A stretch of 64,000 bases of DNA from an uncultured Syntrophus sp. (GTDB lineage: Bacteria; Desulfobacterota; Syntrophia; Syntrophales; UBA8958): positions 15,492 through 79,491 of the forward strand of contig CAZNDG010000008.1 in NCBI GenBank assembly GCA_964571695.1, given 5' to 3'. The notes under the pieces were generated by a model, which was not told the DNA's origin, made no database searches, and worked only from the letters and a program-made list of their open reading frames with translations. Both the position numbers and the translations under genes were made by a program. This document shows, piece after piece, positions 1,271-62,956 of the stretch; the first letter of the stretch is position 1, and each line of letters starts with the position of its first letter.

Positions 1271-1618
1271 CGGAGAGGTCTCCCTTTATATCTCGGCAAG
1301 AGATCCATGCCGCCCCTTTCCAGGTTGCCTGGCTATGTTCGGCGGCGGCGATCCGGAAAGGTAAGCGGGGGCGATTCGCCCTCATACCCTCACTCCGCGG
1401 AAAATCAATTGGGTAATACCTCTGAATGTGTCGGCGTCCGTTTGCCCCTCCCGGCGAAAGATGCAATCCCGTGGACATTTCCATTGTTAAAATTGCCTTT
1501 GTCTGTTATTTGCCCTGTGATCGGAGATAAAGTAAATCTTCCGCCGGGGAGGGAAACATCTTTCGCCTTTTCCCCCGGTGCGAACCGATTCCTGGGCGCA
1601 GATGAGCAAGGACAACAG

Positions 1619-3532
1619 ATGAAGCATATCATCCTCGGCACCGCCGGCCATGTGGATCACGGTAAGACCTCACTGGTCAAGGCCCTGACGGGCATCGACA
1701 CCGACCGTCTCAAAGAGGAGAAGGAGCGGGGGATTACCATCGAACTGGGTTTTGCCGCCCTGCGACTGCCGGGAGGGATGACGCTGGGCATCGTGGACGT
1801 CCCGGGCCACGAACGGTTTATCAAGAACATGGTGGCCGGGGCCTCCGGCGTCGATCTCCTCCTCCTCGTCATTGCGGCCGATGAAGGGGTCATGCCCCAG
1901 ACCCGGGAGCATCTCCATATCTGCACCCTCCTGGGGATTCGCCGGGGTCTCGTGGCCCTCACCAAGATCGACATGGTGGACGAGGACTGGCTGGCCCTGG
2001 TCCGGGACGACGTCCAGGACTATCTCCAGGGGACCTTCCTCGCCGGGGCGCCGGTCGTTCCCGTGTCGGCGGTGACCGGGGCGGGATTGACGGAACTGGT
2101 GGCCGCCCTCGACGCCCTGGCGGCGACGGTGGGGGAAAAGAGGGATCACGGCGTCTTCCGTCTGCCCGTGGACCGGGTGTTTTCCATGCGGGGCTTCGGC
2201 ACCGTGGTTACGGGCACCCTTATCTCCGGAGCAGTGGGCGTGGGCGACGAAATCGAACTTCTTCCCTCGGGCCGGCAGGCCAAAATCAGGACCATTCAGG
2301 TCCATAATCAGGGGGTGGAGCGGGCGGAGGCGGGTCAGCGGACGGCGATCAACCTCCAGGGGGTGGACCGGGCCGCCGTGGAGCGCGGTGAAGTAATGAT
2401 CCGGCCGGGGACCGTTACGGTTTCCCGGCGTCTCGACGTGCTCCTGAACTACCTGGAGAGCAATGAAAAGGCCCTGAAAAACCGGAGCCTCGTCCGGTTC
2501 CACGTGGGCACCCGGGAGAACATCGGCCGGATCATCATCCTGGACCGGGATGAGGCTCTCCCCGGAGCAGGGGTCAACGGCCAGATGATCTTCGCGGAGC
2601 CGGTGGTGGTCATGGCGGGGGATCACTTTGTTGTCCGGAGCTATTCGCCCATCACCACCACCGGCGGCGGGATCGTCCTCGATCCCCTGCCCCGGAAGCA
2701 CAAACGGATGCAGGCGGCGGTAGGGGAAGAGTTCCGCCTGCTGGCCGCGGGAACGGAAGAGCAGCGGGTAGGCGTCATTGTCGCCCGGGCGGGTTCCGAG
2801 GGGGTTAATATTCCTCGCCTGGTCATGCGGACCGGCCTGGCGGAGAGCCGCCTGCGGAAAATCATCGACGTTATGCTGAACGCCCGGCAGGTCGTCCTGC
2901 TGGATTCGGAAACCCTCCTCGTCGTTTCCGCCGCCGCCTATGCCTCCCTGCAGGAGCAACTCCTCCGGAAGCTTGGCGGTTATCACGAGAAGAACCCCCT
3001 CCGGGAGGGGATGCAGAAAGAGGAGCTGCGGATGAATATCGGCGTCTTCATCCAGGCGAAGCTCTTTAACAAGGCCCTCAAGGATCTGGAGAAGGGCGGT
3101 AAGGTGGTCCTGGAGCGGGAGGCGGTGCGGCTGCCGGAGCATCGGGTCCGGTTGGAGGAGGATCTGGAAACCCTCAAGGGGCGGATCCTGGAGTTGTATC
3201 TCCAGGCCGGTCTCACCCCGCCGACGATCCGGGAGGTTTACGGGCGGTTCCCCGACCGGGCCAAGGACGTGGACAGCGTCCGGATGCTCCTGCTCCGGGA
3301 GGGGAAACTCGTTAAGGTTAACGAAGATCTCCTCTACCACCGGGCCGTCCTGGACAAACTCCAGGAAGACTACCGGGAGATGCTGCTCCGGGACGGCCGG
3401 GCGACGCCCGTTACCTTCAAGGAACTGACGAACCTGAGCCGCAAATTCATCATCCCCCTGATGGAGTATTTCGATACGGCAAAGCTGACGGTGCGCTCCG
3501 GGGATTACCGCCTTCTGAGGGAAAAGCGATGA
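1619..3532 (+). CDS. selB: selenocysteine-specific translation elongation factor SelB
   Basis: [26 protein letters not shown]-loop, DVPGHERF motif, EF-Tu-like domains and a long C-terminal winged-helix region. Track ORF (1307) trimmed to the ATG at 1619, which starts the conserved N-terminus. Confidence 0.9.
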
Positions 3533-4281: not shown

Positions 4282-5255
4282 AAAAAAATATCTATATCAG
4301 AGACATCAAACCGGGGGAAAAGATCTACGACTTCTTTTTCGTGACGGAAAAGAACCTGGCCTATTCCCAGAAAGGCGCTCCCTACCTGAACCTGCGCCTC
4401 AAGGATAAGACGGGGGAGTTGGACGGCAAGGTGTGGGACAACGTCCCGGATCTGGACCAGGCCTTCCGGAAGGGCGATTTCGTCTATCTCCAGACCCGGG
4501 CGGTGCAGTATAAAAACGCCATCCAACTGGCCGTAATGAGCGCCCGCCGGGCCGCCCCCGAGGAGATCGATGCGGCGGAATTCTTTCCCGTGGCCAAGGA
4601 AGAGCCGGAACGGATGTTCCGTGAACTGGAGTCGTTTGCCGACCGGGTGAAGACGCCGGCGCTCCGGGATCTTCTCCAATCCTTCCTGGCCGATGAGGAG
4701 ATCGCCGGTCTCCTCCGGCGCGCCCCCGCCGCCAAGGGGTTTCACCATGTCTATATCGGCGGTCTGCTCGAACACACGCTGTCGGTGGTGCGGATCCTGG
4801 ATCTGCTGAGCGGCCACTACGCGGGGCTCAACCATGACCTCCTCATCGCGGGCGGGATACTGCACGATATCGGCAAGATCTACGAGTATTCCTACGACGG
4901 CCTCATCGACTACACCGATGAGGGGCGCCTCATCGGCCACATCGTCATGGGGGTGGAGATGGTGGACCGCAAGATAGCGGCGCTTCCCGATTTTCCGGCG
5001 CAACTGGCCATGGAACTGCGTCATGTCCTTTTGAGCCATCACGGCGTCCTGGAGTTTGGCTCCCCGAAGCGGCCCAAGACCCTGGAGGCCCTCCTCGTCC
5101 ACTATGTGGATGATCTGGACGCCAAGATCAACGCCATGCAGACCTTCGTTGCCGGTGACGGCAACGAGGATTCGGATTGGACCCCCTTCCACCGCCTCCT
5201 CGAACGCTACCTATACAAGGGAAAGAACGCGGGACGGGGGGAAGGTGCGACCTGA
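4278..5255 (+). CDS. OB-fold plus HD-domain protein, YhaM-type 3'-5' exoribonuclease family
   Basis: N-terminal OB-like region (LRLKDKTGELDGKVW) and HD domain (HHVYIGGLLEHT...GILHDIGK...SHHG). ATGA overlap with the fdhD stop. Confidence 0.7.
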   Translation: MKKNIYIRDIKPGEKIYDFFFVTEKNLAYSQKGAPYLNLRLKDKTGELDGKVWDNVPDLDQAFRKGDFVYLQTRAVQYKNAIQLAVMSARRAAPEEIDAAEFFPVAKEEPERMFRELESFADRVKTPALRDLLQSFLADEEIAGLLRRAPAAKGFHHVYIGGLLEHTLSVVRILDLLSGHYAGLNHDLLIAGGILHDIGKIYEYSYDGLIDYTDEGRLIGHIVMGVEMVDRKIAALPDFPAQLAMELRHVLLSHHGVLEFGSPKRPKTLEALLVHYVDDLDAKINAMQTFVAGDGNEDSDWTPFHRLLERYLYKGKNAGRGEGAT

Positions 5256-6446: not shown

Positions 6447-7370
6447 ATGCATGAGCCCTGGCCCCTGGTCAAGAAACGGCGCACCTTGGCGCTCCGGGCC
6501 CGGATCGTGGGGGAGTTGCGCCGCTTCTTTGCCGCCCGCGATTACCTGGAGATCGAAACCCCCTGCCTGATTCCCGCCCCGGCGCCGGAATTCCATATCG
6601 ATACCATGGCCTGCGAAGGCTGGTTCCTCCATCCCTCACCGGAATTATGCATGAAGCGCCTCCTGGCGGCGGGATACGACCGGATCTTTCAGATTTGCCG
6701 GTGTTTCCGCAAGGGAGAGCGGGGCGCCCGCCATCTTCCCGAATTCACCATGCTGGAGTGGTACCGCCGGGAGGCGGATTACCGGGACCTTATGGTTGAA
6801 TGCGAGGAACTCCTCATCGAGGCGGCCGCCGCCCTCGGTTACGGCGACGTGGTGACCTATCAAGGCGAACCCCTCCGGCTCGGGAAACCCTGGGAGCGCC
6901 TGACCGTCTCGGAGGCCTTTACCCGTTTCGCCCCCCTGCCGGCGGCGGATGCCCTGGCCGGGGACTGCTTCGACGAGATCCTGGCGGTTTATGTGGAACC
7001 ATGGCTGGGAAGGGGGAAACCGACATTTCTGTATGATTATCCACTGCCTTTGGCTTCCCTGGCCCGGGAAAAACAGGGGGAGCCCGCCATCGCGGAGCGC
7101 TTCGAATTGTACATGGCCGGCATCGAACTGGCCAACGCCTTTACGGAGCTGGCGGAGGAGAGGGAGCAGCGCCGCCGCTTCGCCCGGGAGGAGGAGGCGC
7201 GCCGCAAGGCCGGCAAACCTCCCTATCCTTCCCCGGATAAGTTTCTGGAATCATTGACTGATATTGGAGATGCCGCGGGGATTGCCCTGGGGGTGGACCG
7301 CCTGGTGATGATCCTGGCCGATGCCCCGGATATAGACGCGGTGACCGCCTTCACACCGGAAACATTGTGA
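6447..7370 (+). CDS. epmA: EF-P-lysine lysyltransferase EpmA (GenX/PoxA, LysRS class II catalytic-core paralog)
   Basis: LRARIVGELRRFFAARDYLEIETP, FQICRCFRKGERGARHLPEFTMLEWY and GIALGVDRLVM class-II aaRS motifs. About 300 aa with no anticodon-binding domain. Adjacent to efp. Confidence 0.85.
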   Translation: MHEPWPLVKKRRTLALRARIVGELRRFFAARDYLEIETPCLIPAPAPEFHIDTMACEGWFLHPSPELCMKRLLAAGYDRIFQICRCFRKGERGARHLPEFTMLEWYRREADYRDLMVECEELLIEAAAALGYGDVVTYQGEPLRLGKPWERLTVSEAFTRFAPLPAADALAGDCFDEILAVYVEPWLGRGKPTFLYDYPLPLASLAREKQGEPAIAERFELYMAGIELANAFTELAEEREQRRRFAREEEARRKAGKPPYPSPDKFLESLTDIGDAAGIALGVDRLVMILADAPDIDAVTAFTPETL

Positions 7371-10822: not shown

Positions 10823-11653
10823 TTGAAGATTTTCTTGCGGTTCCTCTTGATCCTGGGGTTGTTCGTGCCCTTCAGCGGCTGTGCCACTACCGGGGATCTC
10901 CAGCGCGTGCAGGGGAGCCTGGGCAACAAGATCGGCGATCACGATTCGGAGATCTCAGAATTGAGTGAACAGGCGGCAGCGAACAAGAAGGCCGTCGATG
11001 AACTGCGTACGAAACAGGCCGACGTGAATGCGGACATCACGGTTATTCGTGAACAGCTTCAACAACTCCGGGGCGCCGTGGATCAACTCCAGAAGGAGAT
11101 GGCGGACATCCGGAGCCGGGCGGTGGAAACCAAGGAGTTGAAGGAAAAGCTCGATCAGACATCCTTTAAGATAAATTTTATCGAGAACTTTCTCGGGATC
11201 GGCAAGAAGGATGAACGGACGGCCGGGAATGCGGAGAAACACCACAAAAATCAAGGGAAAAACGGCGTCAAGGCCAAGACGGACAAGGAGTCCCTCTATG
11301 CCGCCGCTTACGACTTGTACAAGGAGGGTAAATACGAAAGGGCTCGAGGAGAATTCCAGCATTTTCTGAAGGCCTTTCCTCAAACGGAATATTCGGGGAA
11401 CGCCCAGTTCTGGATCGGGGAATGCTACTATTTCGAAAAAAGCTACGAAAAGGCCATCCTGGAATATGAAAAGGTTATCAAGAACTATCCGGAAGGCAAC
11501 AAGGTCCCCCAGGCCCTGTTGAAACAGGGGCTTTCCTTTCTGGAACTGGGAGACAAGGCGAGCGCCAGACTGATCCTCCAGAATGTCATCAAGGACTATC
11601 CGAACACAAGTCAGGCCCGGGTGGCCCGTTCCAAGCTCCTGGAAATTAAATAG
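10823..11653 (+). CDS. cpoB: Tol-Pal system protein YbgF/CpoB (coiled coil plus TPR lipoprotein)
   Basis: TTG start, lipobox FSGC, long coiled coil, C-terminal TPR block (YDLYKEGKYERARGEFQHFLKAFPQTEYSGNAQFWIGECYY). Follows tolB. Confidence 0.75.
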   Translation: MKIFLRFLLILGLFVPFSGCATTGDLQRVQGSLGNKIGDHDSEISELSEQAAANKKAVDELRTKQADVNADITVIREQLQQLRGAVDQLQKEMADIRSRAVETKELKEKLDQTSFKINFIENFLGIGKKDERTAGNAEKHHKNQGKNGVKAKTDKESLYAAAYDLYKEGKYERARGEFQHFLKAFPQTEYSGNAQFWIGECYYFEKSYEKAILEYEKVIKNYPEGNKVPQALLKQGLSFLELGDKASARLILQNVIKDYPNTSQARVARSKLLEIK

Positions 11654-11796
11654 GACGACATCGTAAAAAGTCCATATGCAGCGTCGCGCTTCATCTTTCG
11701 TCACTGCGACGCACGCACAAGTAGCCCTCATTCCTCAGAATTCGCACGCCTTGCCTCTGGAGTTTTTTACTTAGCCGTCTTCATGTTGACTTCTTG

Positions 11797-11962
11797 AGAG
11801 CTTTGCATAACTGCGGAAAAATGGTTCGCAAGCGGCGAATCAAATGTTTTTCGCGGTTGCGTGATTGAACTTAACGATTGGTAATGAATAAGGTTTATAC
11901 GTTACCCATTCAGAGGCGAAAAAGATTTCTGAGCCGCGGCGAAGCCATTTTTCAAAGGTCTC
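11797..11962 (+). mobile_element. 166-bp palindromic MITE-like element, copy A
   Basis: 160/166 identical, gap-free, to the reverse complement of 62623-62788, and 145/166 to 27163-27328 (hand alignment). Flanked by TTCTTG at 11791-11796 and 11963-11968. Intergenic between the convergent cpoB and lipoprotein genes. Confidence 0.75.
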
Positions 11963-11997
11963 TTCTTGTGAATTCATTGAATAGGATGACGGGATAA

Positions 11998-12810
11998 TTA
12001 TTCCAGTTTTTTCACCTTCGCGCCCGGGGGAACGGGGAGGTCAAACAACTCCGCCCCGGCGGCGGTCATCGTTTCCAGTGTTACGCTTTCGTACTCCATA
12101 ACCAAGGTTTGCGCCTCCTCCCCCTTCATCTTGACCCGGATCCTCTGGGGCATAGGCGCGCCGTCCACCGGGGCGTAGGCGTCGAAATATACGTTCAGGG
12201 CATCATCTCCGCCATTTTCGGCCGTCTGCTCGCAGCGGCGCAGATAACCAGTTTCCCCATCTATCCAGAGGGACTGCCGGATCCGGCGGTCTCGGGAGGA
12301 GATGTCGAGGCGGTAAGCCGCTCCTTCATGAAAACCTTCCACCCGCTGCGGTTCCACCACCGGAAATGCCGGGCGGCCGCCCGTCAGGAGTGAAACCAGA
12401 TCGCTCACAGTTAGGGAGAGGGGAAAAAAACGGGCAAGGTTTTCCGGAACGGCCGCGCCGGTGTAGTATTCCCCCGTTCCGGGCAGATACACGGCGAGCC
12501 GCCCGGCGTGGGCCGCCAGAAAAAAATTTGGCAAGCCGATCACCGGAATGGCCTCGAGCCGCAGAGAATCCGGTTTCCAGGCCAGGATGGCGAGCTTGAG
12601 GGGATACCGTCCCGTCTCCGTGATTACCGCGATTTCCGCTATGGCCTTGAGGAGACGCCTATCCCGCGACCGAAGGTCGAGGCGGGCCAATGCCTCTTCC
12701 GGGTTGAGGTTGATAGCTTCCCCCGGTTTTGACGTTCCGGTATCGTGGGCGCAGCCTCCGGCAATAAGAGAAAAGAACAGGAATAAGGATAAGATTCGGA
12801 TCCTGATCAT
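11998..12810 (-). CDS. outer-membrane lipoprotein, LolB-like/DUF4292-type
   Basis: Lipobox LIAGGC. About 270-aa soluble beta-rich domain. Overlaps the stop of the upstream TPR gene, a pairing commonly seen for DUF4292 proteins. Confidence 0.5.
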   Translation of the reverse strand: MIRIRILSLFLFFSLIAGGCAHDTGTSKPGEAINLNPEEALARLDLRSRDRRLLKAIAEIAVITETGRYPLKLAILAWKPDSLRLEAIPVIGLPNFFLAAHAGRLAVYLPGTGEYYTGAAVPENLARFFPLSLTVSDLVSLLTGGRPAFPVVEPQRVEGFHEGAAYRLDISSRDRRIRQSLWIDGETGYLRRCEQTAENGGDDALNVYFDAYAPVDGAPMPQRIRVKMKGEEAQTLVMEYESVTLETMTAAGAELFDLPVPPGAKVKKLE

Positions 12811-17034: not shown

Positions 17035-18681
17035 TCATTCGTGGACATAGATACCCGGCGCCCGATCCCGGGGCGGGTATTTCCGGTTTCCCAGAGGCGG
17101 GGGCGGCCGCCGGGAGTTGTCGTGCTGGCTCAGCCAGGCGGTCCAGTCCGGCCACCAGGAGCCGCGCCTTTCCTCCTGCCGGCGGAGCCAGGCCTCGGGT
17201 TCCTCCGGGAGCTCCGCCTCCCCGCTCCAGTATTTACGCCGCGATCCCTCGGAGTGGGGGTTGATGATCCCGGTGATGTGCCCCTCGCTGGAGAGGACAA
17301 AGCGGCGTCGGCCCGCAACGATCCCGCAGGTGCGAAAGGCGCCGCGCCAGGGGCAGATATGGTCAAGTTGGGTTCCCACGGCGTAGAGGGGCTGTACGAC
17401 CCTGCCCATATCGATGGGACGTTCCCCCAGGGTCAAGGCGTCGCTTTTGGCGAGATTGTTGTGGAGGTAGAACTCCCGGAGATAGTAGGAGCACATGGCC
17501 TCGGGCAGGCGGGTGCTGTCGCTGTTCCAGAAGAGCATGTCGGACTTCGGGGAGGCGGCCCCGTAAAGATAGTTCTGAATATAGTTTCTCCAGATCAGGT
17601 TGTCGGCGCCGAGGATCCGGAAGATCCAGCTCAGGTACCGGGCATCGAGGAATCCGTCCATTTTCATGAGGGCCTCGGTGGCGGCGAGGGAGCGGTCGCT
17701 GATGAAAACCCCCAGATCCCCCGGTTCACTGAAATCCACCAGGGTCGAAAACAGCGTCCAGTCCGCCACCGGCCCGGGGCTTTTCCTCCGTTGGCCCCGG
17801 TTGAGCCAGGCCATGAGGGCCGCCAGGGCCGTGCCGCCGATGCAGTACCCAGCCGCGTGGACCTGGGGACTCCGGCAGATGTGCCGCGCCGCCGCCACCG
17901 CCGCCAGCGCCCCGGCAAACATGTAATCGGAGAAGGCAACCTCCCGCATGGCCTCCGTCGGATTCTTCCAACTGATAGTGAAGACGGTAAACCCCTGATC
18001 CCGTAGATAACGGACCAGGCTGGTCTGGGGGGTCAGATCGAAGATGTAGTACTTGTTGATCCAGGGAGGGATCAGAACCACCGGGAGGGTATAGGTCGTT
18101 TCCGTGGCGGCTTCGTACTGGATGAGTTCCATGATCTCGTTGCGAAAAACCACGGCGCCGGGGGTAATGGCGATATTTTCCCCCACCCGAAAGGCCGTCT
18201 CGTCGGTGATACGGGAGAGATAATCCCCCCTGCTCAGGTCTTCCCAGGCCCGGCCCAGCCCCTGCATGAGACTGGCGCCCCCGGTTTCGAGGAACTTTTT
18301 CATGGCCGCGGGATTGGTCCAGAAGAAATTCGGCGGCGCCATGGCGCTCAAGATCTGTTGGATCCAGAAACGGGCCCGTTGCCGGTCCCGGTCGTTGAGG
18401 TCCCGGGTCAACTCCACCAACTCCCGGAGCCAGATGTCCAGAATGGCATGAAAGCGCCGGTTTAATTTTGCGTTCTTCCGGACGTATTCGAGGAAGACCT
18501 CGCCGGCGTTTTCCTTGTCCTCCGCCGGCAGCTCCGAGGACAGGAGGTGGGGAAACTCTTCCCGGGTCGCCTCCTCCAGACGCCGGAAGAGATCGATGAC
18601 CCGCTCATTCGTCTCTTCCGAGCGGTCCAGCCAGGAACGCTGGACATTCCAGAGGGAAGTCAAAATATCCAGGGGGTCCAT
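17035..18681 (-). CDS. phaC: class I-type poly(R)-hydroxyalkanoate synthase homolog (alpha/beta hydrolase)
   Basis: PPWINKYYIFDL motif and lipase-box GYCIGGT with a Cys nucleophile. PhaC-type N-terminal region. 548 aa. Confidence 0.7.
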   Translation of the reverse strand: MDPLDILTSLWNVQRSWLDRSEETNERVIDLFRRLEEATREEFPHLLSSELPAEDKENAGEVFLEYVRKNAKLNRRFHAILDIWLRELVELTRDLNDRDRQRARFWIQQILSAMAPPNFFWTNPAAMKKFLETGGASLMQGLGRAWEDLSRGDYLSRITDETAFRVGENIAITPGAVVFRNEIMELIQYEAATETTYTLPVVLIPPWINKYYIFDLTPQTSLVRYLRDQGFTVFTISWKNPTEAMREVAFSDYMFAGALAAVAAARHICRSPQVHAAGYCIGGTALAALMAWLNRGQRRKSPGPVADWTLFSTLVDFSEPGDLGVFISDRSLAATEALMKMDGFLDARYLSWIFRILGADNLIWRNYIQNYLYGAASPKSDMLFWNSDSTRLPEAMCSYYLREFYLHNNLAKSDALTLGERPIDMGRVVQPLYAVGTQLDHICPWRGAFRTCGIVAGRRRFVLSSEGHITGIINPHSEGSRRKYWSGEAELPEEPEAWLRRQEERRGSWWPDWTAWLSQHDNSRRPPPPLGNRKYPPRDRAPGIYVHE

Positions 18682-18683
18682 CT

Positions 18684-18950
18684 TCAGGCCCTCTTCTCTC
18701 CCCCGGCGTCAAGCTTTTCAGGGTTTTCGATACGGGCGGCAATCTCCCCGAGGGTGGCGTCCTCGCCGAAGAGGTCAAGGGGGATGGTGACATTGAAGGT
18801 TTCCGCGATAAAATTCTGCAGGTTCACCGCCGCCATGGAATCGAAATCGGGGATGTCCCCCAGACGGGTTTCCGCATCGATGACCATTCCTTCCGTTTCC
18901 GGGAAAAGGTCTTCTATGCCCGTCCTGAGTTTCTTTAACGTATCGGTCAT
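18684..18950 (-). CDS. acyl/peptidyl carrier protein (phosphopantetheine-binding)
   Basis: 88 aa, acidic, with DFDSMAAVNL (a DSx attachment-site Ser at the start of helix II). Only 2 nt separate it from phaC. Confidence 0.65.
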   Translation of the reverse strand: MTDTLKKLRTGIEDLFPETEGMVIDAETRLGDIPDFDSMAAVNLQNFIAETFNVTIPLDLFGEDATLGEIAARIENPEKLDAGGEKRA

Positions 18951-18981
18951 GCCTTTACCTCCTTTTGGATATGTTCCTTAC

Positions 18982-19962
18982 TCAGATCCGGATCAGATTG
19001 GCTCCCCAGGACAAGCCGCCGCCGAAGGCCGCGGTGATCACCAGATCCCCCGGGCCGACAACGCCCTCCGTCCGGGCCTCGTCCAGGGCGATGAGGACCG
19101 AGGCGCTGGCGGTGTTCCCGTAGCGGTCCAGATTTACATAGAATCTTTCCCGTGGGACGTCAAGGATGTCGGCGATGCCCCAGAGGATGTGAATGTTCGC
19201 CTGATGGCACAGGAAGCATTTGATCTCTCTCAGCGCGACGCCGGCCGCCGCCGCGGCCTGGCGGATAACCAGGGGGCCTTTGTCGAGGGTGAAGTTGAAC
19301 ACCTCCTCCCCCTTCATGCGGAAATACGCCGCCCGGGGGTTGGTGATCTTTCCGTAGGGCATCATGGCCCCGCCGCCGGGGACGCAGATCGTTTCACTGC
19401 GGCTGCCGTCGGTGCCCAAAACGGAGTTGAGCACCCCGCGGGCGGCTTCTTCCCGGCCCTGCAGCAGCACCGCCCCCGCCCCGTCTCCGAAATAGGGGTA
19501 GGTGGAGAAATCCTTACGGTTGAGGATCCGGGAATAGGTCTCCGCGGCCACAAAGAGGATGTTTTCGTACTGCCCCGTCCGAATCAGGGCGTCGGCGAGG
19601 TGGAGGCCATAGGTGCTGCCCGCGCATACGGAATTGATATCGAAGGCGAAGGAGCTCCGGGCTCCGAGGAGGTGCTGGAGGCGAGTGGCCGTGGCCGGCT
19701 GGATGCGGTCGGGGGAGGAGGTGGAAAGTATGATCCCCTTGACGTCGGCGGCCGGGAAGGAGATCTTCTCCAGACAGGACCGGGCCGCCTCGAGGGCGAG
19801 GTCGGAGGTGGTCTGATGTTCTCCGGCGTGCCGCCGCGCCTGGACCCCGGTTTTGCTGCCGATCAGGGCCTGGGCCTCCCGGGAAAACTGGGTGAGCCCC
19901 TCGTTGGGAATGACGGTCTCCGGCAGGTAGGAACCGGTGGAGGCAATGACGCCTCTTTTCAT
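18982..19962 (-). CDS. 3-oxoacyl-ACP synthase III (FabH-like KAS III)
   Basis: Cys-His-Asn triad contexts present: DINSVCAGSTYGL, FLCHQANIHIL, RYGNTASASV. Trimmed to the MKRGVIAS start, which has a GGGGGAAAG SD. Confidence 0.8.
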   Translation of the reverse strand: MKRGVIASTGSYLPETVIPNEGLTQFSREAQALIGSKTGVQARRHAGEHQTTSDLALEAARSCLEKISFPAADVKGIILSTSSPDRIQPATATRLQHLLGARSSFAFDINSVCAGSTYGLHLADALIRTGQYENILFVAAETYSRILNRKDFSTYPYFGDGAGAVLLQGREEAARGVLNSVLGTDGSRSETICVPGGGAMMPYGKITNPRAAYFRMKGEEVFNFTLDKGPLVIRQAAAAAGVALREIKCFLCHQANIHILWGIADILDVPRERFYVNLDRYGNTASASVLIALDEARTEGVVGPGDLVITAAFGGGLSWGANLIRI

Positions 19963-20034
19963 ATCGCTTTCCCCCGCTTTTTGATTGAGGAAGATCTCTA
20001 TCACAGAGCGGAAAATCCTGTCAAAAAAAACCCT

Positions 20035-21345
20035 TCAGGATATCACCGGCGGGCCGCTGACCAGCACCTTGTCGATCCGGTGGCCGTCCATGTCCACGAT
20101 CTCGAACCGCCAGTTGCCCCAGTGAAAGTGATCGCCCGTGGTGGGGATTCGTTCCAGATAGGACATGATGAATCCGGCCAGGGTGTGAAAATCGCCCCTT
20201 ACCTCCGCCGGCAGTTTCTGGATCTTGAAATGGGCCTTGAAGTCGTCTATGGAGAGGGCGCCGTCAACGAGCCAGGAGCCGTCCTCGCGGCGGACGATCT
20301 CCCGGTCCCCCCCCTCGCTCAGGGAGGGTATGTCGCCCACGATCGTCTCGATGACGTCGCTGATGGTCACCAGTCCCTGGATGATGCCGTATTCATCCAC
20401 CACCATGGCCATATGGATGGGGGATGTCTTGAACTGTTCCAGGACCTGCCAGGCGGAGATCGTTTCAGGAAAATAGAGGGGTTTCCGCAGCAGGGGCAGG
20501 AGGTCGGGATCTCCCTTTTCCGGGGTGAGCTCCTGCTTCAGGAGGTCCTTGAGATGGAGAAATCCGATGACCTGATCGAGACTGCCCCGGCCGACGGGGA
20601 AACAGGTGTGTTCACCGGTACGGATGATATCCAGATTTTGGGCGAAGGGCTTCGCGGCATCCAGCCAGAGGACGTCCGGACGGGGAGTCATGAGATCACG
20701 GACGCCCAGATCGTCGATGTGGAAGGCCCGGTGACAGATCTCATGCTCCATGGCATGAAAGATGCCGGCTTCCGCTCCCTCTTCGAGGAGCACCTTTACC
20801 TCTTCCTCCGATACGGAACTTTCCGACTTTTTTATGTTCATGACCTTCAGGAGGGCCTCCGTAGAGATATCGAGAATCCAGACCAGGGGGTAGGCGGCAA
20901 GGGAAAGGTAATAGACCGGGCGTGCGGCCAGGGTGGCGATCCGTTCCGCCTTGAACAGGGCCAGCCGTTTGGGGACCAGCTCCCCCAGGACCAGAGAGAG
21001 ATAGGTGATTGCCAGTACCACCAGGGTGAGGCTGATGGTGTCGCTGTACGGGCGGAGCGCCGGATACTGCTGCAGATAGGCGCTCACGGATTTCGCCACG
21101 GTTGCGCCGCCGTAGGCCCCGGACAGGATGCCGACGAGGGTGATGCCGATCTGGATGGTGGAGAGAAAACTCCCCGGTTCTTCGGCGAGGTTCAGGGCCT
21201 TCTCCGCCCCGGCATCGCCGTTTTCCGCTTCGACCCGGAGCTTGGCCTTGCGGGAAGATACCAGGGCGATCTCCGCCATGGAGAAAGCCCCGTTGATCAG
21301 GACCAGAATCAGCAGAATAATAAGTTCGGCAGGCAGAGAAGACAT
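20035..21345 (-). CDS. CNNM/HlyC-CorC family transporter (DUF21, CBS pair, CorC_HlyC domains)
   Basis: N-terminal DUF21 (LINGAFSMAEIALVSSRK), CBS pair, C-terminal transporter-associated domain (GHRIDKVLV). Confidence 0.8.
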   Translation of the reverse strand: MSSLPAELIILLILVLINGAFSMAEIALVSSRKAKLRVEAENGDAGAEKALNLAEEPGSFLSTIQIGITLVGILSGAYGGATVAKSVSAYLQQYPALRPYSDTISLTLVVLAITYLSLVLGELVPKRLALFKAERIATLAARPVYYLSLAAYPLVWILDISTEALLKVMNIKKSESSVSEEEVKVLLEEGAEAGIFHAMEHEICHRAFHIDDLGVRDLMTPRPDVLWLDAAKPFAQNLDIIRTGEHTCFPVGRGSLDQVIGFLHLKDLLKQELTPEKGDPDLLPLLRKPLYFPETISAWQVLEQFKTSPIHMAMVVDEYGIIQGLVTISDVIETIVGDIPSLSEGGDREIVRREDGSWLVDGALSIDDFKAHFKIQKLPAEVRGDFHTLAGFIMSYLERIPTTGDHFHWGNWRFEIVDMDGHRIDKVLVSGPPVIS

Positions 21346-21383
21346 GAGTTGCGATTTCCGGAATTCAAACGATTGTTACGATC

Positions 21384-21412
21384 AATATAGGCGGCTTTTG
21401 CTATGGAGTCAA
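21384..21412 (-). promoter_or_regulatory. candidate sigma70 promoter of the CorC-family gene
   Basis: On the minus strand: TTGACT (21412-21407), exactly 17-nt spacer, TATATT (21389-21384). About 32-nt leader to the ATG at 21345. Confidence 0.45.
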
Positions 21413-27116: not shown

Positions 27117-27162
27117 GGCTTCTCCTTCTATCGTGATCGGTGGGTGATGCCTAAATAGTAAT

Positions 27163-27328
27163 AGGGTTTTGCATAATTGCGGAAAAATGGTTCGCAAGCG
27201 GCGAATCAAATGTTTTCACCGTTTTCTTGATCGAACTTAACGCCCGGTAATGAATAAGATTTATACTTTATCCATTGAGAATCGGAAAAGATTTCTGAGC
27301 CGCGGCGAAGCCATTTTTCAAAGATCTC
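27163..27328 (+). mobile_element. 166-bp palindromic MITE-like element, copy B (most diverged)
   Basis: 145/166 identical, gap-free, to copy A. The inner arm blocks are identical and substitutions cluster in the centre. Flanks are AGTAAT (27157-27162) and AGTATG (27329-27334). Confidence 0.7.
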
Positions 27329-27362
27329 AGTATGTAAACAGTGCGTACCCGGTCTCTCGCGG

Positions 27363-34202: not shown

Positions 34203-35450
34203 TTAGCCTTTGCAAGCGGGTATGCAATCCAGGACCCGGTTGGAGACGGTATCCACGATGTTCTGCAGCCAATCCGTCCCCGCTTTGATGGTCTGTTCGT
34301 CCAGATTCTGGATGGTTTGGAGGTAGTCTCGGTGTTCCTGGCCCCGGATTTCCATGGCGGCCAGGAAGGATGTCCGGTCTTGGCCTTCCCGTTCCGCTTC
34401 GCTGCCGTCGGTGAAGCAGGCTTCGATAGCGGGCCATTTTTCCATAAATTCCCGTTTCTGCCGGATCAGGGTCTCCCGACGGGCGCCCGAGAGAATCCTT
34501 TCTGAGATGGCGATGGATTGTTCCATCTTTTCCGCCAAGGCCCGGAAACGGCTCAGCCGCTCGCCGATGGCCAGCTCCAGTTTGTCCAGCGCCCCGGCGT
34601 ACAGCTCCCCGCCCAGTTCCCGGGCGACGAAAAAGGGCCGGCGGACGAGAATGTACCATTGCCGGAGGGCGAGAAGATTGGCCAGATAAATGATGTTGTT
34701 GTGGATGCGTCGCCGGATGTCGCCGTAGAAGCCCATGTGAAAATTGACCTCGTAGGCCATGTTCCCCATCTGGCCGAGGAGTTTGCCCCCCTCGGGGCAG
34801 TCCCCCCGATAGACGGTTCCCGCCGAGACGACCGTTCCGTAACCGATCCGGGTGGGTCCCACGATTCCTCCCTGGCCGCCCAAGAAGATCGGGGGCTGAT
34901 TCAGCATGACGCCCCGGGGGACATCGCCGACCAGGGATGGGGTGGCCTTGTCCTGATTCGGGGTATAGTTGAAGTGAATATAAGAGCTTCCCACTTCCGT
35001 ATGGTTCTTCCGGCTCGTTCCTCCGGCGAGGAAGCAGTCGCAGAAGTTGATCAGGCTGCCGAGGGTGACAAAGGGAAAGAGGATCGTTTGTTTAAGACCC
35101 ACGGCATGGGCTCCGTTCGCCTCTTCCTCCAGGAGACAGCCCTCCCGCACCTGGGCGCCGCTGCCCAGATTTGCCTTTTCCAGACATACGGACCGGGTAA
35201 AAAACCCGCCTTTCAGTTCCACCCGGGGCCCCAACTGGCAATCGAGGATCGTAGCGGGGGTCTCGCAACCAAGTTTAACCCCTGGCATGATCAGGGTTTT
35301 TTCCCCGCGGATCCGCGTGCCGCTGTAAAAGATCACTCCCTCGCCGGCGATACGTTCTATCGCCACTTCCGGTCCGATCTCCACGGTGGCCGGATTGGGC
35401 ATGGCCACCCCTTTTTCGAGCAGGAGTCTTATTTTGGGATCGGTGGACAT
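34203..35450 (-). CDS. left-handed beta-helix protein resembling the GlmU C-terminal acetyltransferase domain, plus a helical C-terminal domain
   Basis: Hexapeptide-repeat region (IGPEVAIE..., LGSGAQVREGCLL, GGQGGIVGPTRIGYGTVVSAGTV). No N-terminal nucleotidyltransferase G-x-G-T-R-M-type motif seen. GGAGGAG SD. Confidence 0.55.
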   Translation of the reverse strand: MSTDPKIRLLLEKGVAMPNPATVEIGPEVAIERIAGEGVIFYSGTRIRGEKTLIMPGVKLGCETPATILDCQLGPRVELKGGFFTRSVCLEKANLGSGAQVREGCLLEEEANGAHAVGLKQTILFPFVTLGSLINFCDCFLAGGTSRKNHTEVGSSYIHFNYTPNQDKATPSLVGDVPRGVMLNQPPIFLGGQGGIVGPTRIGYGTVVSAGTVYRGDCPEGGKLLGQMGNMAYEVNFHMGFYGDIRRRIHNNIIYLANLLALRQWYILVRRPFFVARELGGELYAGALDKLELAIGERLSRFRALAEKMEQSIAISERILSGARRETLIRQKREFMEKWPAIEACFTDGSEAEREGQDRTSFLAAMEIRGQEHRDYLQTIQNLDEQTIKAGTDWLQNIVDTVSNRVLDCIPACKG

Positions 35451-42982: not shown

Positions 42983-43021
42983 CGGTTGCCGTTGACCGTG
43001 CATAAACGCGGTGCAATTGAT

Positions 43022-44587
43022 ATGACGGGGAACGGCAGCCGGGCGGGAGGAAACAGATTCTGGGGGGAAACGACGGCCTTTCTCGCCCTGTTTCTCGACA
43101 ACGTCGGGGTGCTGATCTTCCTAAGCGCGATCCTGGTTTTCACCTTCAATTATCCCGCGGAGATCGTCCTTACCCGCATGATCCCCGGTACGGCCGTGGG
43201 CGTTTTCTGCGGCGACCTCGTCTATACCTGGATGGCCGTCCGTCTGAGGAAGAAGACCGGGCGGACCGACGTTACCGCCATGCCCCTGGGTCTGGATACG
43301 CCCTCCACCATCGGGATCGCCTATGCCGTCCTCGGACCGGCCTATGTGGCCACCCGGGACGCCGAACTCACCTGGCATATCGGCATGGCCACCCTGTTCA
43401 TGATCGGCGCCGTCAAGATCGTCACGTCCTTCTGCGGCGCCTGGCTGCAACGCGTCATTCCCACCGCCGGGCTTTTGGGCCCCCTGGCGGGGATCGGTCT
43501 TTTGCTTTTGGGTTTTCTTCCCCTTCTGGATGTCTTCGGCGAGCCCATCGTGGGTCTCACCGCCCTGGGGATCGTCTTTGCCGTTTTCCTTGCCCGGATG
43601 GAGCTTCCAGGCCGGATGCCCGGAATCCTCGTGGCCGTCGTTTTGGGGACGCTGATCCATCTCATCCTCGGATACGGGGGCTATCTGCCGGAATTCCGCC
43701 CCCCGTCCCTGGAAATGAAACTCTATATCCCCGTTTTTTCTCTCGAATTTCTAAAAAGCCTGCCCCAGAGCCTGCCTTATCTGTCCATTGCCATCCCCTT
43801 CGGGATCATGACCATCATCGGGGGCATCGACAATACGGAGAGCGCCCGGCTGGCCGGGGACGCCTACCGGAGCAGGGACATACTCCTCACCGAGGCCTTC
43901 ACCTCGCTCATTGCCTCCTTCTTCGGCGGCGTGGCCCAGACCACTCCCTACATCGGTCACCCGGCGTACAAGAAGATGGGGGGAACCTACTGGTACACCC
44001 TCTTCACGGGGGTGCTGATCGGGGTGGGGGCGGTGGTCGGATTGTTGTCGTTGTTCGTGGCGGTCATCCCCCGGGCGGCCCTGGCCCCCATTTTTATGTT
44101 CATCGGCTTCGAGATGACGCGGCAGGCTTATCAGGAAGCGCCGTTGCGTCATTCCCCGGCGGTTAGCATCTGCTTTCTCCCCGTGGCGGCCAACATGATG
44201 CTTATCATCCTCGGTCAATTCCTGGGCCCCCTGGCGATCGCGCCGGACACACTGCCGCCACGCCTCCAGATCCTCCATCAGAACCTGACGGTATTGAGCA
44301 ACGGTTTCATCGTCACCGGACTCCTCTGGGGGAGCATGCTGGCCTTTCTCATCGACGGCCGAAAGTGCCGGGCCTCCCTTTGCGCCGTCATCTGCGCCCT
44401 CTTCAGCCTTTGCGGCATCATCCATTCGGTGCTGCCTTCGGGGGAGATCTATCCGCCCTGGCGGCCGGCCGGTTATGCCCATTATCTCGTCGCGGCCGGA
44501 TATGGGTTGCTGGCGGTCGTTTTCGCCGTCCTCCGGCCCAAAGAGGTGGGGGACGACAAGATCTCAAGGAGTGATGGCGGCGGTTGA
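43022..44587 (+). CDS. polytopic permease (NCS2/APC-superfamily-like), substrate unknown
   Basis: More than 10 hydrophobic segments; resembles xanthine/uracil-permease-like families. The start is uncertain (TTG 42986 or ATG 43022). Confidence 0.45.
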   Translation: MTGNGSRAGGNRFWGETTAFLALFLDNVGVLIFLSAILVFTFNYPAEIVLTRMIPGTAVGVFCGDLVYTWMAVRLRKKTGRTDVTAMPLGLDTPSTIGIAYAVLGPAYVATRDAELTWHIGMATLFMIGAVKIVTSFCGAWLQRVIPTAGLLGPLAGIGLLLLGFLPLLDVFGEPIVGLTALGIVFAVFLARMELPGRMPGILVAVVLGTLIHLILGYGGYLPEFRPPSLEMKLYIPVFSLEFLKSLPQSLPYLSIAIPFGIMTIIGGIDNTESARLAGDAYRSRDILLTEAFTSLIASFFGGVAQTTPYIGHPAYKKMGGTYWYTLFTGVLIGVGAVVGLLSLFVAVIPRAALAPIFMFIGFEMTRQAYQEAPLRHSPAVSICFLPVAANMMLIILGQFLGPLAIAPDTLPPRLQILHQNLTVLSNGFIVTGLLWGSMLAFLIDGRKCRASLCAVICALFSLCGIIHSVLPSGEIYPPWRPAGYAHYLVAAGYGLLAVVFAVLRPKEVGDDKISRSDGGG

Positions 44588-48596: not shown

Positions 48597-50183
48597 ATGG
48601 ACGAGTTAGGAAACGAATTTTTCCGGCAGGCCACCATCCGGCTCTGCAGCAGTCTGGAAATAGAAAAGGAGATGTTCAACTGTCTCGCCTATCTGCGGAA
48701 TTATCTGCCCGCCCGGGAGATGCTGCTGATCATCTTCGATCCGATCCCGGGGTTGATCCACAATCTGGCCCGGGTGAGTCTGGACGGGATCGGTAAACCC
48801 TTTCGCTCCAAATCACTCTCGGAGGAGGCGATCTGCCGGATCAACTATGACACCGCCACCTGGCAGGAGGTCAAGATTCTCGATCGACTGGAATTGCACC
48901 CTGCCGGTTGGATCCTCTATGACCATGTAAATCTGTCCATGACCTCCATGATGTACATCAGTCTGGTGATTGAAGGAAAACGACTGGGATCGATCGTCTT
49001 TCTGGCGGACGGCAGGGGGATGTTCAAAAGAGAGCATGCCGACCTCATCTCCCAATTGCGGGAACCTTTTATCATCGCCGTCTCCAACGCCCTGCGCTAC
49101 CGGGAGTTGACCAAGCTGAAGGATATCCTGGACGCGGAAAATCAGGACCTCACCCGGGAGCTGAGATATGTTACGGAAGATGATATTGTCGGCGCCGATT
49201 TCGGTCTGAGGCAGGTGATGGAGATGGTCAGGCAGGTGGCCTCCCTCAAGAGCCCCGTGTTGCTCCTGGGAGAGACCGGGGTGGGGAAGGAGGTGGTTGC
49301 CAACGCCATTCATTACGCCTCCCCGCGGCGAGAGCGGCCGCTGGTCAAGGTGAACTGCGGTGCCATTCCCGAGAGCCTCATGGACAGCGAATTATTCGGT
49401 CACGAGCGGGGGGCCTTTACCGGGGCCATCGCCCAGAAGAAGGGCCGCTTCGAGCGGGCCGACAAGGGCAGCATCTTTCTCGACGAGGTTGCCGAACTGC
49501 CGCCGTCCATTCAGGTAAGGCTGCTCCGGGTGCTGCAGAACGGAGAAATCGAGCGGGTGGGAGGGGCGGAAACCATCCCGGTGGATATCCGCGTCATCGC
49601 CGCCACCCATCGCAACCTGGAGGAGATGGTGCGCACCGGCAACTTCCGGGAGGATCTCTGGTTCCGCCTCAATATCTTTCCCATCATAATTCCCCCCCTG
49701 CGGAACAGACAGGGAGACATCCCGAACCTGATCCGTCATTTCATGGAGAAGAAGGCCCGGGAACTGAAGATTCACACCCCGCCGCCCATGTCCGCCCAGG
49801 CCCTGGAAAGGCTCAAGGAGTATCACTGGCCGGGCAATGTCCGGGAGTTGGAAAATCTCGTCGAACGGGAATTGATCAGAAGCAGGGGCACCAACGGCAA
49901 CCGTTTCATGACCTTCGAGCATTTCCGGTGGCCCCGGCGTTCCGGCCCGGCCTGGGGCGTCCCGGAGGGCAACGGGAATGTCCTGACCCTGGACGAGGCG
50001 ATGGCCCAGCATATCCAACTGGCCCTGGAACAGGCCCAGGGCAAGATCTACGGGTCCGACGGCGCGGCCGCTTTGCTGGGAATCAACCCCAACACCCTGC
50101 GCAGCCGGATGAAGAGACTGGGGATCTTTCCGACCGGCTCCCAGAACCGGCGCCGGCTCCGGGAAGTAGCGACGCAAGGTTAA
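48597..50183 (+). CDS. sigma54-dependent transcriptional activator (GAF-like sensor, AAA+ domain, Fis-type HTH)
   Basis: LLLGETGVGKE Walker A, GAFTGA sigma54-contact loop, IFLDEV, C-terminal HTH (AAALLGINPNTLRSRMKRLGI). Trimmed to ATG 48597. Confidence 0.88.
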   Translation: MDELGNEFFRQATIRLCSSLEIEKEMFNCLAYLRNYLPAREMLLIIFDPIPGLIHNLARVSLDGIGKPFRSKSLSEEAICRINYDTATWQEVKILDRLELHPAGWILYDHVNLSMTSMMYISLVIEGKRLGSIVFLADGRGMFKREHADLISQLREPFIIAVSNALRYRELTKLKDILDAENQDLTRELRYVTEDDIVGADFGLRQVMEMVRQVASLKSPVLLLGETGVGKEVVANAIHYASPRRERPLVKVNCGAIPESLMDSELFGHERGAFTGAIAQKKGRFERADKGSIFLDEVAELPPSIQVRLLRVLQNGEIERVGGAETIPVDIRVIAATHRNLEEMVRTGNFREDLWFRLNIFPIIIPPLRNRQGDIPNLIRHFMEKKARELKIHTPPPMSAQALERLKEYHWPGNVRELENLVERELIRSRGTNGNRFMTFEHFRWPRRSGPAWGVPEGNGNVLTLDEAMAQHIQLALEQAQGKIYGSDGAAALLGINPNTLRSRMKRLGIFPTGSQNRRRLREVATQG

Positions 50184-50275
50184 AGATATTGACAGCCGGC
50201 GGAAAATAACCGAGAATGACCTTCCCCTGGAGATGCAGGGTTGGATAGCCGGATCGAATCAACCTCCTGTTCATC

Positions 50276-51292
50276 ATGAAACTGATTTATGCCACCGATG
50301 TTCATGGCTCCTTCGAGCGGGTGCGGGAACTGCTCCGTCTTACCACGGCCGATATTTACATCATCGCGGGCGATCTGGTGGATATACCGTTCTATACCGT
50401 GCAGACGGCGCGTCGTTACCATGACCTCCAGACATATTTTCACAGTCTGAGGCGGGACCGGGGCAAGACGGCCGCCACCCTCGATGATTTCGTCGCGACG
50501 CTCCTGGAGGAGCCCGATCTGCCCGGCGAGGTGTGGGAGAAAGGAGACCGGTTTCGCTACGAGACCATGCGGGCCCGAAATATCCTCCAGATGCACTACC
50601 GGCTTCTGGACAATATCCTCTCCCTGGCCACGGCGGGGACGGCCTTCACCCTGCCGGGCAATCACGACATGGATCTCCGCCATACGAGGCTCCGGCGCCG
50701 GGACCTCCATCTCCAGTGTCACGAGGCAGGCGGGATAAGAATCGCCGGGTACGGGGGAGCGGCGGGAAATACCCCGGGCATCCCGGAACGTTTCGGGGTG
50801 GCCTATCGAGAAGGCGCGGGTGGCGAGAGCGATGAAATGTACCGTTTTTTCCAAGCCGTGCGGCCCGATGTCATCGCCGTACATCAGCCTCCTTATGGAA
50901 TTCACGATTATGCCCCTCCCATGGGCGAAACTGGTTCCCATGCCCTGCGCCGGTATTGCGAACGATACCCCGTGCTCCTCTGCCTCACGGGGCACCTCCA
51001 CGACCAGTGGGGGCTGGAGGAAGTGGAGGACACGGTGTTTCTCAACCCCTCCCATTTCGGGGAAATCGTTCAGGAGAACGGAACGATTGCCGAAGGAGGC
51101 TTCTTCCATGAATTGGAAATTTACGGCCAAAAGATCGGCGGCGTCCGGCACCGGAAACTGGTGGGGGATGTGATCCACGACCTGGTGTTTTATGAGCGCC
51201 GGGAAGGAGAATGGGCCCGGCGGGTGGCGGACCGGGAACGTTACGGGGCGCTGCTGAGGGGGATCAATTGCGAGCCGCCGGGAGACGCTTAG
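50276..51292 (+). CDS. calcineurin-like metallophosphoesterase
   Basis: MKLIYATDVHG, IIAGDLVD, LPGNHD and LTGHLH metal-ligand motifs. Confidence 0.7.
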   Translation: MKLIYATDVHGSFERVRELLRLTTADIYIIAGDLVDIPFYTVQTARRYHDLQTYFHSLRRDRGKTAATLDDFVATLLEEPDLPGEVWEKGDRFRYETMRARNILQMHYRLLDNILSLATAGTAFTLPGNHDMDLRHTRLRRRDLHLQCHEAGGIRIAGYGGAAGNTPGIPERFGVAYREGAGGESDEMYRFFQAVRPDVIAVHQPPYGIHDYAPPMGETGSHALRRYCERYPVLLCLTGHLHDQWGLEEVEDTVFLNPSHFGEIVQENGTIAEGGFFHELEIYGQKIGGVRHRKLVGDVIHDLVFYERREGEWARRVADRERYGALLRGINCEPPGDA

Positions 51293-51319
51293 CGCCGTCG
51301 GCCGGGAAGGGCGGAAGAG

Positions 51320-52420
51320 ATGACGAAAAAAGGCGAAGCGGATGTGAGGTTGCTGGGGAGGATGGCGAATCTGGCGATTTCCTGCCTCACCGAGGAGGAG
51401 GTAGTCGCCGTTGCGGCCCGTTTCCTGCCGCAGCTTTTTCCCGGGGAATCCGGGGCGCTTTTTCTCCGTCCCGCCGCCGGGAAGGAGTATGAACCGGCGG
51501 CGTCCTGGGGCGAGGAGAGGGCATGGCATCCCTTTCCCGGCGCCGATTGCTGGTCCCTGCGCCGTCGCCGTCTCCATAGCGTCCGCCAGGGAAAGGACCA
51601 ACCCCTCTGCCCCCATTCCGATCACGATCCGGAGCGGTGGATTTCCCTCTGCATCCCCATGACGGCCCGGGAAGATGTCCTGGGTGTTTTCCACGTCCTG
51701 ATCCCGGTGGAAGAGGGCTCGGCCGGGAGTGGGGAAAGGCTTGGTGACCGGCAGCTTCCGGGTGGTAATCCGCGCCCGGCCGCGGATGCGGAGGTTTGGG
51801 AACCCGGCGGATCGGAAGCCTCCCTGGGTGAAGGGACGGATGAAAGGAGGCTGGCGGCCCTGACGGCGGATATCCTGACGATGATTTTCGTTAATCTCCG
51901 GCTGCGACGGCAGATCGACGATCTCTCCGTCCGGGATGCCCTGACGGGATGCTTCAACCGCCGCTATCTGGAGGACAGCCTTGCCAGGGAAATCAAGATC
52001 GTCCAGCGGACCCGGCGGCCTCTGGCGGTGGTCCTCATGGATATCGACCATTTCGGGCGGTTCACCGATGCCTTCGGTCATGGGGCGAGCAGCATGGCGC
52101 TCCGGGAACTGGGGGACTTTCTCCGGAAGAATGTCCGGGATACGGATCTGACCTGCCGCTACGGAGCCGATGAATTCGCCCTCTTGTTCCCCGACACGGA
52201 TCTGGCCGGCGCCCGGCGCCGGGCGGAACATCTTCACGCCATGCTTCGGGATCTCTCTCTCCATGGCGGCGGCTCCCACCTGCGCCGGATCACCCTGTCC
52301 ATGGGCGTTGCGGCCTATCCCGATCAGGGGGAAACGTGGGGAGATCTCATGGAGGCGGTGAAGGCCGCCTTGAAAAGGGCCAAGCAAGGCGGTCGGGATC
52401 GGGTCTGCGGCGGCGAGTAG
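51320..52420 (+). CDS. GAF-GGDEF protein with a degenerate A-site (GADEF)
   Basis: RDALTGCFNRRYL, MDIDHFGRFTDAFGH, RDTD-x5-GADEF (I-site RxxD retained; second Gly of GGDEF replaced by Ala). Confidence 0.75.
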   Translation: MTKKGEADVRLLGRMANLAISCLTEEEVVAVAARFLPQLFPGESGALFLRPAAGKEYEPAASWGEERAWHPFPGADCWSLRRRRLHSVRQGKDQPLCPHSDHDPERWISLCIPMTAREDVLGVFHVLIPVEEGSAGSGERLGDRQLPGGNPRPAADAEVWEPGGSEASLGEGTDERRLAALTADILTMIFVNLRLRRQIDDLSVRDALTGCFNRRYLEDSLAREIKIVQRTRRPLAVVLMDIDHFGRFTDAFGHGASSMALRELGDFLRKNVRDTDLTCRYGADEFALLFPDTDLAGARRRAEHLHAMLRDLSLHGGGSHLRRITLSMGVAAYPDQGETWGDLMEAVKAALKRAKQGGRDRVCGGE

Positions 52421-52526
52421 AGAATATGTCGCCGGCCCCGGCCCATGATCGCCGGCCGGGCGAGATGATTTACTTTTTACCGACAATCTGCCATATATAG
52501 CCCCGGTGAAGGGAGGGATGATGGGC

Positions 52527-62579: not shown

Positions 62580-62622
62580 AAGCCGGACATATTTCCACAT
62601 CCGGGATGAGAACATGGACAAT

Positions 62623-62788: not shown

Positions 62789-62956
62789 AACAATGTACAT
62801 GAGGCATTGTCAAGAAGAAAACTTTCGGAAGATTGCCGGAAGCGGCGGAGCCTTCCGAAAACACGACCGCGGGGCGACGTTGCAACACTATGAAAACAAT
62901 GGCGTCTTCCGGACGGACGGTCCGGGGAAGTTTTGTCGTGCCGGGAAGGATCATGT

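Follow-up and report, generated by a model that had tools for sequence, protein, structure and literature searches.

What are the three closely similar repeats that lie between genes in a 64-kb stretch of DNA (the window) from an uncultured Syntrophus sp., and how did they come to be there? A sequence-only reading of the window had taken them for a non-autonomous transposon moved in trans and, alternatively or additionally, for a hairpin RNA. In this study, we showed that the repeats are mobile, as seen from flanking duplications, empty sites and a nested insertion, that they are non-coding, and that they belong to a family which is spread over several species and has formed lineage-specific subfamilies. 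Very probably this is a family of MITEs mobilised in trans by a transposase making 5-bp staggered cuts. MITEs are small elements of about 30-300 bp without a transposase gene, and the features by which they are recognised were found here: small size, no ORF, many dispersed copies, terminal inverted repeats, duplications of constant length and variable sequence, and presence or absence at orthologous sites. The proposal of a transposon moved in trans is upheld by the further copies, the duplications, the empty sites, the lack of an Rfam match and the lack of a transposase in the window.

When the sequence was re-read, the three copies were found at the places originally proposed. Copy A lies at 11796-11962 (+), copy B at 27162-27328 (+) and copy C at 62623-62789 (−), each being 167 bp long. 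Copy A is of the window-type subfamily and scored 158 bits against the family profile with nhmmer, copy B is the most diverged of the three, and both B and C have T as the first base. Ungapped identity was 160/166 for A and C and 145/166 for A and B, exactly as counted by hand before, and 141/166 for B and C, with E values of 4e-76 and 2e-55 in blastn between the copies within the window. The G+C content of the element is ~42% (copies about 40-44%) against 59.8% for the window. Mismatches between A and B were located at element positions 1, 4, 6, 16 and 163 and at 17 positions within 56-124, with zero in 17-55 and 125-162, in agreement with the earlier remark that the arms of copy B are intact while its centre is diverged.

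Copy A is situated between two convergent genes, a CpoB/YbgF-like TPR gene (end 11653) and a 270-aa gene (end 11998). Copy B is flanked by glmM, whose stop is at 27363, and by a NagB/6PGL-like gene starting at ~27119, and is antisense to both; copy C lies upstream of a ferredoxin gene in sense arrangement. Gene calls thus agree that A, B and C are all intergenic, as had been claimed, in three different gene arrangements (convergent; antisense between co-directional genes; sense) and beside unrelated housekeeping genes. A riboswitch or shared 5' leader was considered, as all copies first seemed to face gene starts, and was rejected because the neighbours are unrelated and the genes on either side of copy A are convergent. 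A possible sigma-54 promoter (TGG-N10-GC), considered by eye for the arms, was also rejected, the match being too weak.

The boundaries were determined from 76 full-length copies aligned with their flanks. The element is 167 bp long, from 5' GAGAGCTTTGCATAAC to 3' CAAAGGTCTC; the earlier length of 166 bp was corrected because similarity in the family alignment begins one base further 5'. This extra 5' base is G in 70 of the 76 copies and in 44 of 51 copies of a second set, which was selected through the other arm with the already-seen copies excluded. In copy A, the left terminal inverted repeat GAGAGCTTTGCATAAC (16 nt; 11796-11811, +), a terminus which also stands at both ends of other small elements, is followed by the left inner arm (GAAAAATGGTTCGCAAGCGGCGAATCAAA...; 11817-11853, +), the most conserved left-hand block. 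An A+T-rich variable centre (11854-11916, +; 31% G+C) separates it from the right inner arm (...GATTTCTGAGCCGCGGCGAAGCCATTTTT; 11917-11952, +), which pairs with the left inner arm, and the element is closed by the right terminus CAAAGGTCTC (11953-11962, +), whose 10 nt match the left terminus in inverted orientation. Inverted termini and pairing inner arms, both noticed before, were reproduced: GAGAGCTTTG agrees with the reverse complement of CAAAGGTCTC (GAGACCTTTG) at 9/10 positions, and the reverse-complement match between the inner arms is 80% over 40 nt. The two inner arms, ~37 nt each, are nearly invariant and imperfectly complementary, and the left one contains a sub-hairpin, TTCGC-AAGCG-GCGAA, between an A-run and a T-run. 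The termini are asymmetric (left 16 nt, right 10 nt), and the family profile scored ~160 bits in the forward and ~35 bits in the reverse direction, indicating that the element has a definite orientation and is no perfect palindrome.

Mean column conservation was 0.93-0.98 in the inner arms, 0.86-0.90 at the tips and 0.75 in the centre. For the left inner arm the mean was 0.95, with 0.94 in copies outside the selection by the scan pattern, and the arms were also the best conserved part among 11 copies not chosen via the scan pattern. The left inner arm is probably the part bound by a transposase. Tips that are less conserved than the inner arms are unusual for a MITE, and this was counted against the MITE explanation.

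To define the family, genome contigs were scanned with a 24-mer from the right arm and then with a 24-mer from the left arm, which gave at least 87 DNA stretches and at least 103 more, respectively. The hosts listed for the right-arm matches were nearly all MAGs labelled Syntrophales, Syntrophaceae or 'delta proteobacterium'. A profile made from the window copies and iterated once was searched against the fetched loci (labelled L001 etc.), yielding 135 and 97 non-overlapping hits for the loci of the two scans. Further copies in relatives, for which the sequence-only reading had suggested a search, number more than 200; they come from at least 8 Syntrophales/Syntrophaceae MAGs, with at least 64, at least 34, at least 31, at least 26, at least 19, at least 11, at least 4 and at least 4 distinct instances per MAG. 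The element was also seen on two single short contigs from MAGs of phyla unrelated to the main hosts, L057 (JAUSPO, 'Bacillota') and L209 (JAKQOW, 'Acidobacteriota'), which are more likely mis-binned Syntrophales contigs than cases of horizontal transfer.

The flanks of these copies record transposition. A perfect 5-bp duplication was present in 32 of the 76 copies, whereas 2000 shuffles of the flanks gave 0.54 on average and 5 at most. The identity between flanks was 0.70-0.79 at each of the five positions, 0.37 at the sixth, and about 0.25-0.31 at other offsets or lengths. In the second set, 17 of 51 copies had a perfect 5-bp duplication against 0.52 by shuffling, and the duplications sought at additional copies are therefore real in both sets. 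The duplicated 5-mers are A+T-rich and differ from copy to copy, which argues for true duplication and not for a fixed target motif. Flank comparison in the window gave TTCTT on both sides of copy A (left 11791-11795, right 11963-11967; strand not applicable), ATTGT on both sides of copy C in element orientation (5' 62790-62794, 3' 62618-62622), and AGTAA/AGTAT, a 4/5 match, for copy B (left 27157-27161, right 27329-27333). Accordingly, the short duplications reported earlier at the ends of the three copies were present, perfect in A and C and at 4/5 in B, and their length was revised from 6-7 bp to 5 bp.

Orthologous sites with one copy of the target were also found, as the sequence-only reading had proposed to look for: four clean filled/empty pairs between species, in which the empty site keeps a single 5-mer. 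In one pair the filled site reads cattccc GGTGC (182 bp) TGTGC agg in L075 and the empty site cattccc TGTGC aga in L045; the other pairs are L065/L037 (TGTTG), L009/L011 and L007/L069. In L051 (~1500-1710, minus strand), one full copy has inserted into the left arm of a second one and is flanked by its own duplication, TCTTG/TCTTG. Other insertions, with the same flanks, are common to species (L027/L034, L071/L049 and L001/L031), and these shared insertions together with the empty sites indicate long-lasting activity of the family. Similarity ends exactly at the termini in well over 100 copies whose flanks are unrelated. The site of copy A was filled in 8 of 8 metagenome contigs carrying the neighbouring protein gene among the matches listed, and no empty site for this copy was seen among these 8 contigs. 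At the copy B locus of the relatives L098 and L099, the glmM-nagB-like order is kept with a spacer of about 30-46 nt and no element.

The centre of the element falls into three sequence subfamilies of equal length. Since the centre is not conserved across the subfamilies, no conserved ORF is possible. Apart from the window itself, MAG JAKQIZ alone showed the window-type centre among the matches listed, at 97-99% identity, and such confinement fits lineage-specific bursts. Besides the main size class of 165-167 bp, variants of ~64, 85, 144, 187 and 210 bp occur. The ~64-nt form is exactly the product expected from deletion between the 8-nt direct repeats GCGGCGAA of the two arms. Two loci that share an orthologous site differ in this way: L069 (6777-6942) has the full element and L007 (2130-2180) the 64-nt form; the flanks and the duplication ATATC are identical, showing that the deletion occurred in place. 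Other ~64-nt forms are L087:5452-5516 and L084:4575-4631, and the 187-nt forms have an additional palindrome of ~22 nt. A rearranged copy was observed at L002:6603-6778, with a left-terminal piece inverted beside the right end. An exact IHF consensus, AATCAATAAATTA, occurs at element positions ~77-89 of the family alignment (e.g. L004:4014-4179). An IHF site as a part of the centre was rejected, as it is found in 22 of 61 copies which all belong to one subfamily and are related by descent, and it is absent from the window copies.

GAGACCTTTGCATAAC also terminates, on one side or on both, small elements of 122-170 bp whose interiors are unrelated to the studied family. They were located at L197:2789-2921, L221:1944-2065, L243:2600-2721 and L244 ~2090-2265 (minus strand), the other end of the last one being TTTTTCAAAGGTCTC, like in the studied family. 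Perfect 5-bp duplications flank the elements in L197 (TCTAT) and L221 (AAGGA), and the interiors of this second group are rich in GTCATTCCGG...CCGGAATGAC hairpins. A terminus and a 5-bp duplication that are common to unrelated elements point to one trans-acting enzyme, and the second group is probably mobilised by the same enzyme as the studied family. The 16-mer terminus is likely the unit recognised by the shared enzyme, with the right end of the studied element likely a shortened version of it. Three solo 16-nt termini were seen on one strand of L182, a low-G+C contig of MAG JADFWA, at 4843-4858, 6490-6505 and 6515-6530. Every one of them precedes a minus-strand ORF by no more than ~50 nt. 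Two form a tandem pair spaced by 9 nt, and one overlaps a putative ATG (GTT ATG CAA AGG TCT C...). These solo termini could be excision remnants or something else.

The transposase was searched for in several ways. No transposase domain was detected by Pfam among the ~46 ORFs of the window, as the sequence-only reading had stated, and neither the window nor ~1.6 Mb of related DNA yielded a transposase partner. Pairs of the terminus 0.6-3.5 kb apart with a 5-bp duplication were absent from ~1.1 Mb of related DNA, and a search for inverted GAG...CTC repeats spaced by 0.6-3.5 kb and bordered by identical 5-mers gave chance-level matches only. In the two batches of loci, none of the left-arm-only matches ran into a transposase-sized ORF; the solo-arm matches proved to be copies that are truncated, nested or have an internal deletion. 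Matches to the terminus beyond the known copies revealed no autonomous element, and a gapped pattern from the subterminal sequence of the second family retrieved three more MITEs and no autonomous element. All-against-all megablast for IS-like repeats returned only syntenic blocks between species. No similar sequence was found by blastn in 72,556 plasmids or in the viral contigs of IMG/VR. The full-length IS with these termini that the sequence-only reading had expected to be sought was consequently not met with in the window, the related loci, the plasmids or the viral contigs.

As a lead to the enzyme, IS5-type families typically have a GAG... terminus and make duplications of 2-4 bp, and the families known for 5-bp duplications (Tn3, the IS2 group, IS1380, IS1634 and IS1202) have other termini. 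To our knowledge, no catalogued IS family combines a GAGA(C/G)CTTTGCATAAC terminus with a strict 5-bp duplication. Two or more structurally different MITE families with this terminus and no partner found might be explained by a transposase type not yet described, and the complementary changes between the arms are a hint at a transposase acting on the folded hairpin. We regard it as rather unlikely that the mover is of such a kind, or that the host has co-opted the elements as bidirectional terminators or regulatory hairpins.

For the MITE family, the following mechanism is proposed. A transposase encoded elsewhere in the genome, presumably of the DDE type and still present in these genomes, would bind the arms and the termini, with the inner arms serving as its putative binding sites. 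After excision or copying of the element, the enzyme would integrate it at A+T-rich targets by making cuts with a 5-bp stagger, and repair of the staggered cuts would leave the 5-bp direct duplication.

The hairpin was the other explanation offered by the sequence-only reading. Here a structured RNA would be primary, a ~140-nt hairpin acting as an sRNA, an mRNA stabiliser or a bidirectional intrinsic terminator, and the multi-copy state secondary. Both strands do fold far better than shuffled sequences (z −4.2 and −4.1), but equal folding on the two strands is a property of any inverted repeat. The left-arm sub-hairpin with its A-run and T-run fits the simple pattern of an intrinsic terminator on both strands (window 11822-11851, copies B and C likewise), and according to crude ORF-based gene calls for 88 copies, 28 lie in convergent and 12 in divergent spacers. 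An excess of convergent over divergent spacers is usual for tolerated selfish repeats. Against a dedicated RNA, all four orientations to neighbouring genes occur among the 88 copies, the window copies being in three configurations. Rfam gave no hits for the whole window at the gathering threshold, and a search of 11650-12100 at E up to 10 returned only an irrelevant match of 9.8 bits outside the element; the element thus matches no Rfam family, a point that had been left for checking. The supposed '-10-like box' turned out to be part of the terminal inverted repeat, and the promoter scan gave one weak 9/12 match which lies partly in the flank. Terminator-like MITEs such as SPRITE have been noted in a MITE review (PMC10969869), in keeping with an RNA role. 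The hairpin plus T-run in a dispersed repeat is shared with them, whereas the elements studied here, as putative terminators, stand in every orientation, also upstream of genes.

Some complementary double changes between the arms would also fit a structured RNA, yet the helices are almost invariant, leaving little covariation, and those pair columns that do vary show no pairing in 44-50 of 61 copies. Covariation was set aside as evidence on RNA, because nearly invariant helices neither support nor refute it. The exceptions are one U-A to C-G switch at the level of a subfamily and a correlation between CCNNTG, just outside the left A-run, and CANNGG, just outside the right T-run. In 27 copies the right 6-mer departs from the majority CAAAGG, and in 7 of these the two motifs are fully complementary, compared with 2.5 expected by shuffling (P about 0.002); the changes affect either arm and comprise six different dinucleotide pairs. 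Simple recognition of ends by a transposase does not predict such arm-to-arm complementarity, which was counted against the MITE explanation. Possibly it reflects templated correction in a quasi-palindrome during replication, or selection on the folded strand. An RNA function alone leaves the duplications, the empty sites and the nested insertion without explanation. With equal z values on the strands, mixed gene orientation and near-invariant helices, the hairpin-RNA alternative found no support, and we consider it very unlikely; a hairpin RNA may possibly be a by-product of transcription that runs through the element. A REP/REPIN- or IS200/IS605-type palindrome, mobilised in single-stranded form by a tyrosine (HUH) transposase, for example RAYT, would likewise be a long imperfect palindrome, intergenic and in high copy number, and the complementary arm changes would fit recognition of a folded single strand. 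Elements of these types are known to insert without target duplication beside a fixed short motif; in the studied element a variable 5-bp duplication is strongly supported, the empty sites hold one copy of the target, and no RAYT-like gene was seen in the window, so that this explanation is highly improbable. Least probable of all, to the point of being negligible, are segmental duplication or gene conversion remnants of one intergenic region: the high identity of A and C (96%) would agree with them, but they are refuted by the sharp ends at the termini with unrelated flanks, the duplications, the empty sites and the spread over several species. The MITE family mobilised in trans is thus the preferred explanation.

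The MITE family can be compared with prokaryotic MITEs such as Chunjie of Geobacter uraniireducens, Correia of Neisseria, the pneumococcal RUP and the enterobacterial ERIC/IRU (PMC10969869, PMC3184786), which are likewise small, non-coding, multi-copy and mostly intergenic, with terminal inverted repeats, target-site duplications and a possible long hairpin on transcription. Chunjie is 178-235 bp long and has partial copies (PMC10969869), and the studied element too has size variants and truncated copies. No sequence relation to Chunjie, Correia, RUP or ERIC/IRU was found. The usual MITE duplication is a TA dinucleotide (PMC4133298); unlike usual MITEs, the studied element has a 5-bp duplication, asymmetric termini and arms that are better conserved than the tips. 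The closest functional analogues are TIMEs, which are non-autonomous, 262 bp long, with 38-bp inverted repeats conserved in Tn3-family transposons, and which use A+T-rich targets with 5- or 6-bp duplications (PMC4133298). The studied element is likewise non-autonomous, with A+T-rich targets and a 5-bp duplication, whereas the defining 38-bp Tn3 repeats are absent from it and its termini are GAGAGC/GAGACC, a comparison that rests on the blastn search against the 72,556 plasmids, which are expected to include many Tn3-family transposons. Tn3-family repeats begin with GGGG. Correia elements have a TA duplication and a 26-bp terminal repeat and are set apart by this description from the studied element with its variable 5-bp duplication.

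In the literature searched, no paper linking MITEs with Syntrophus or Smithella was found, and the terminus sequence appeared there only as an unrelated Streptobacillus primer. Syntrophales are not mentioned in the 2024 MITE review (PMC10969869). It is well supported that the elements form a previously undescribed MITE family in Syntrophus-like bacteria, with relatives that share the termini. The family is clearly an ordinary kind of selfish DNA, and the general understanding of MITEs is unchanged by it. It documents a MITE family for poorly studied syntrophic anaerobes, which are known mostly from metagenome bins, and it accounts for broken contigs and for spurious small ORFs in their MAGs. 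Insertions that are polymorphic between species offer markers for the comparison of strains and species, and the defined terminus GAGACCTTTGCATAAC together with the 5-bp duplication is a handle for seeking the transposase.

Among the window ORFs, four had no Pfam match at E up to 0.01: 18547-21390 (+, 947 aa), 34203-35450 (−, 415 aa), 42986-44587 (+, 533 aa) and 50180-52687 (−, 835 aa). The third-position G+C of the 947-aa ORF is 0.62, against ~0.75 in its neighbours.
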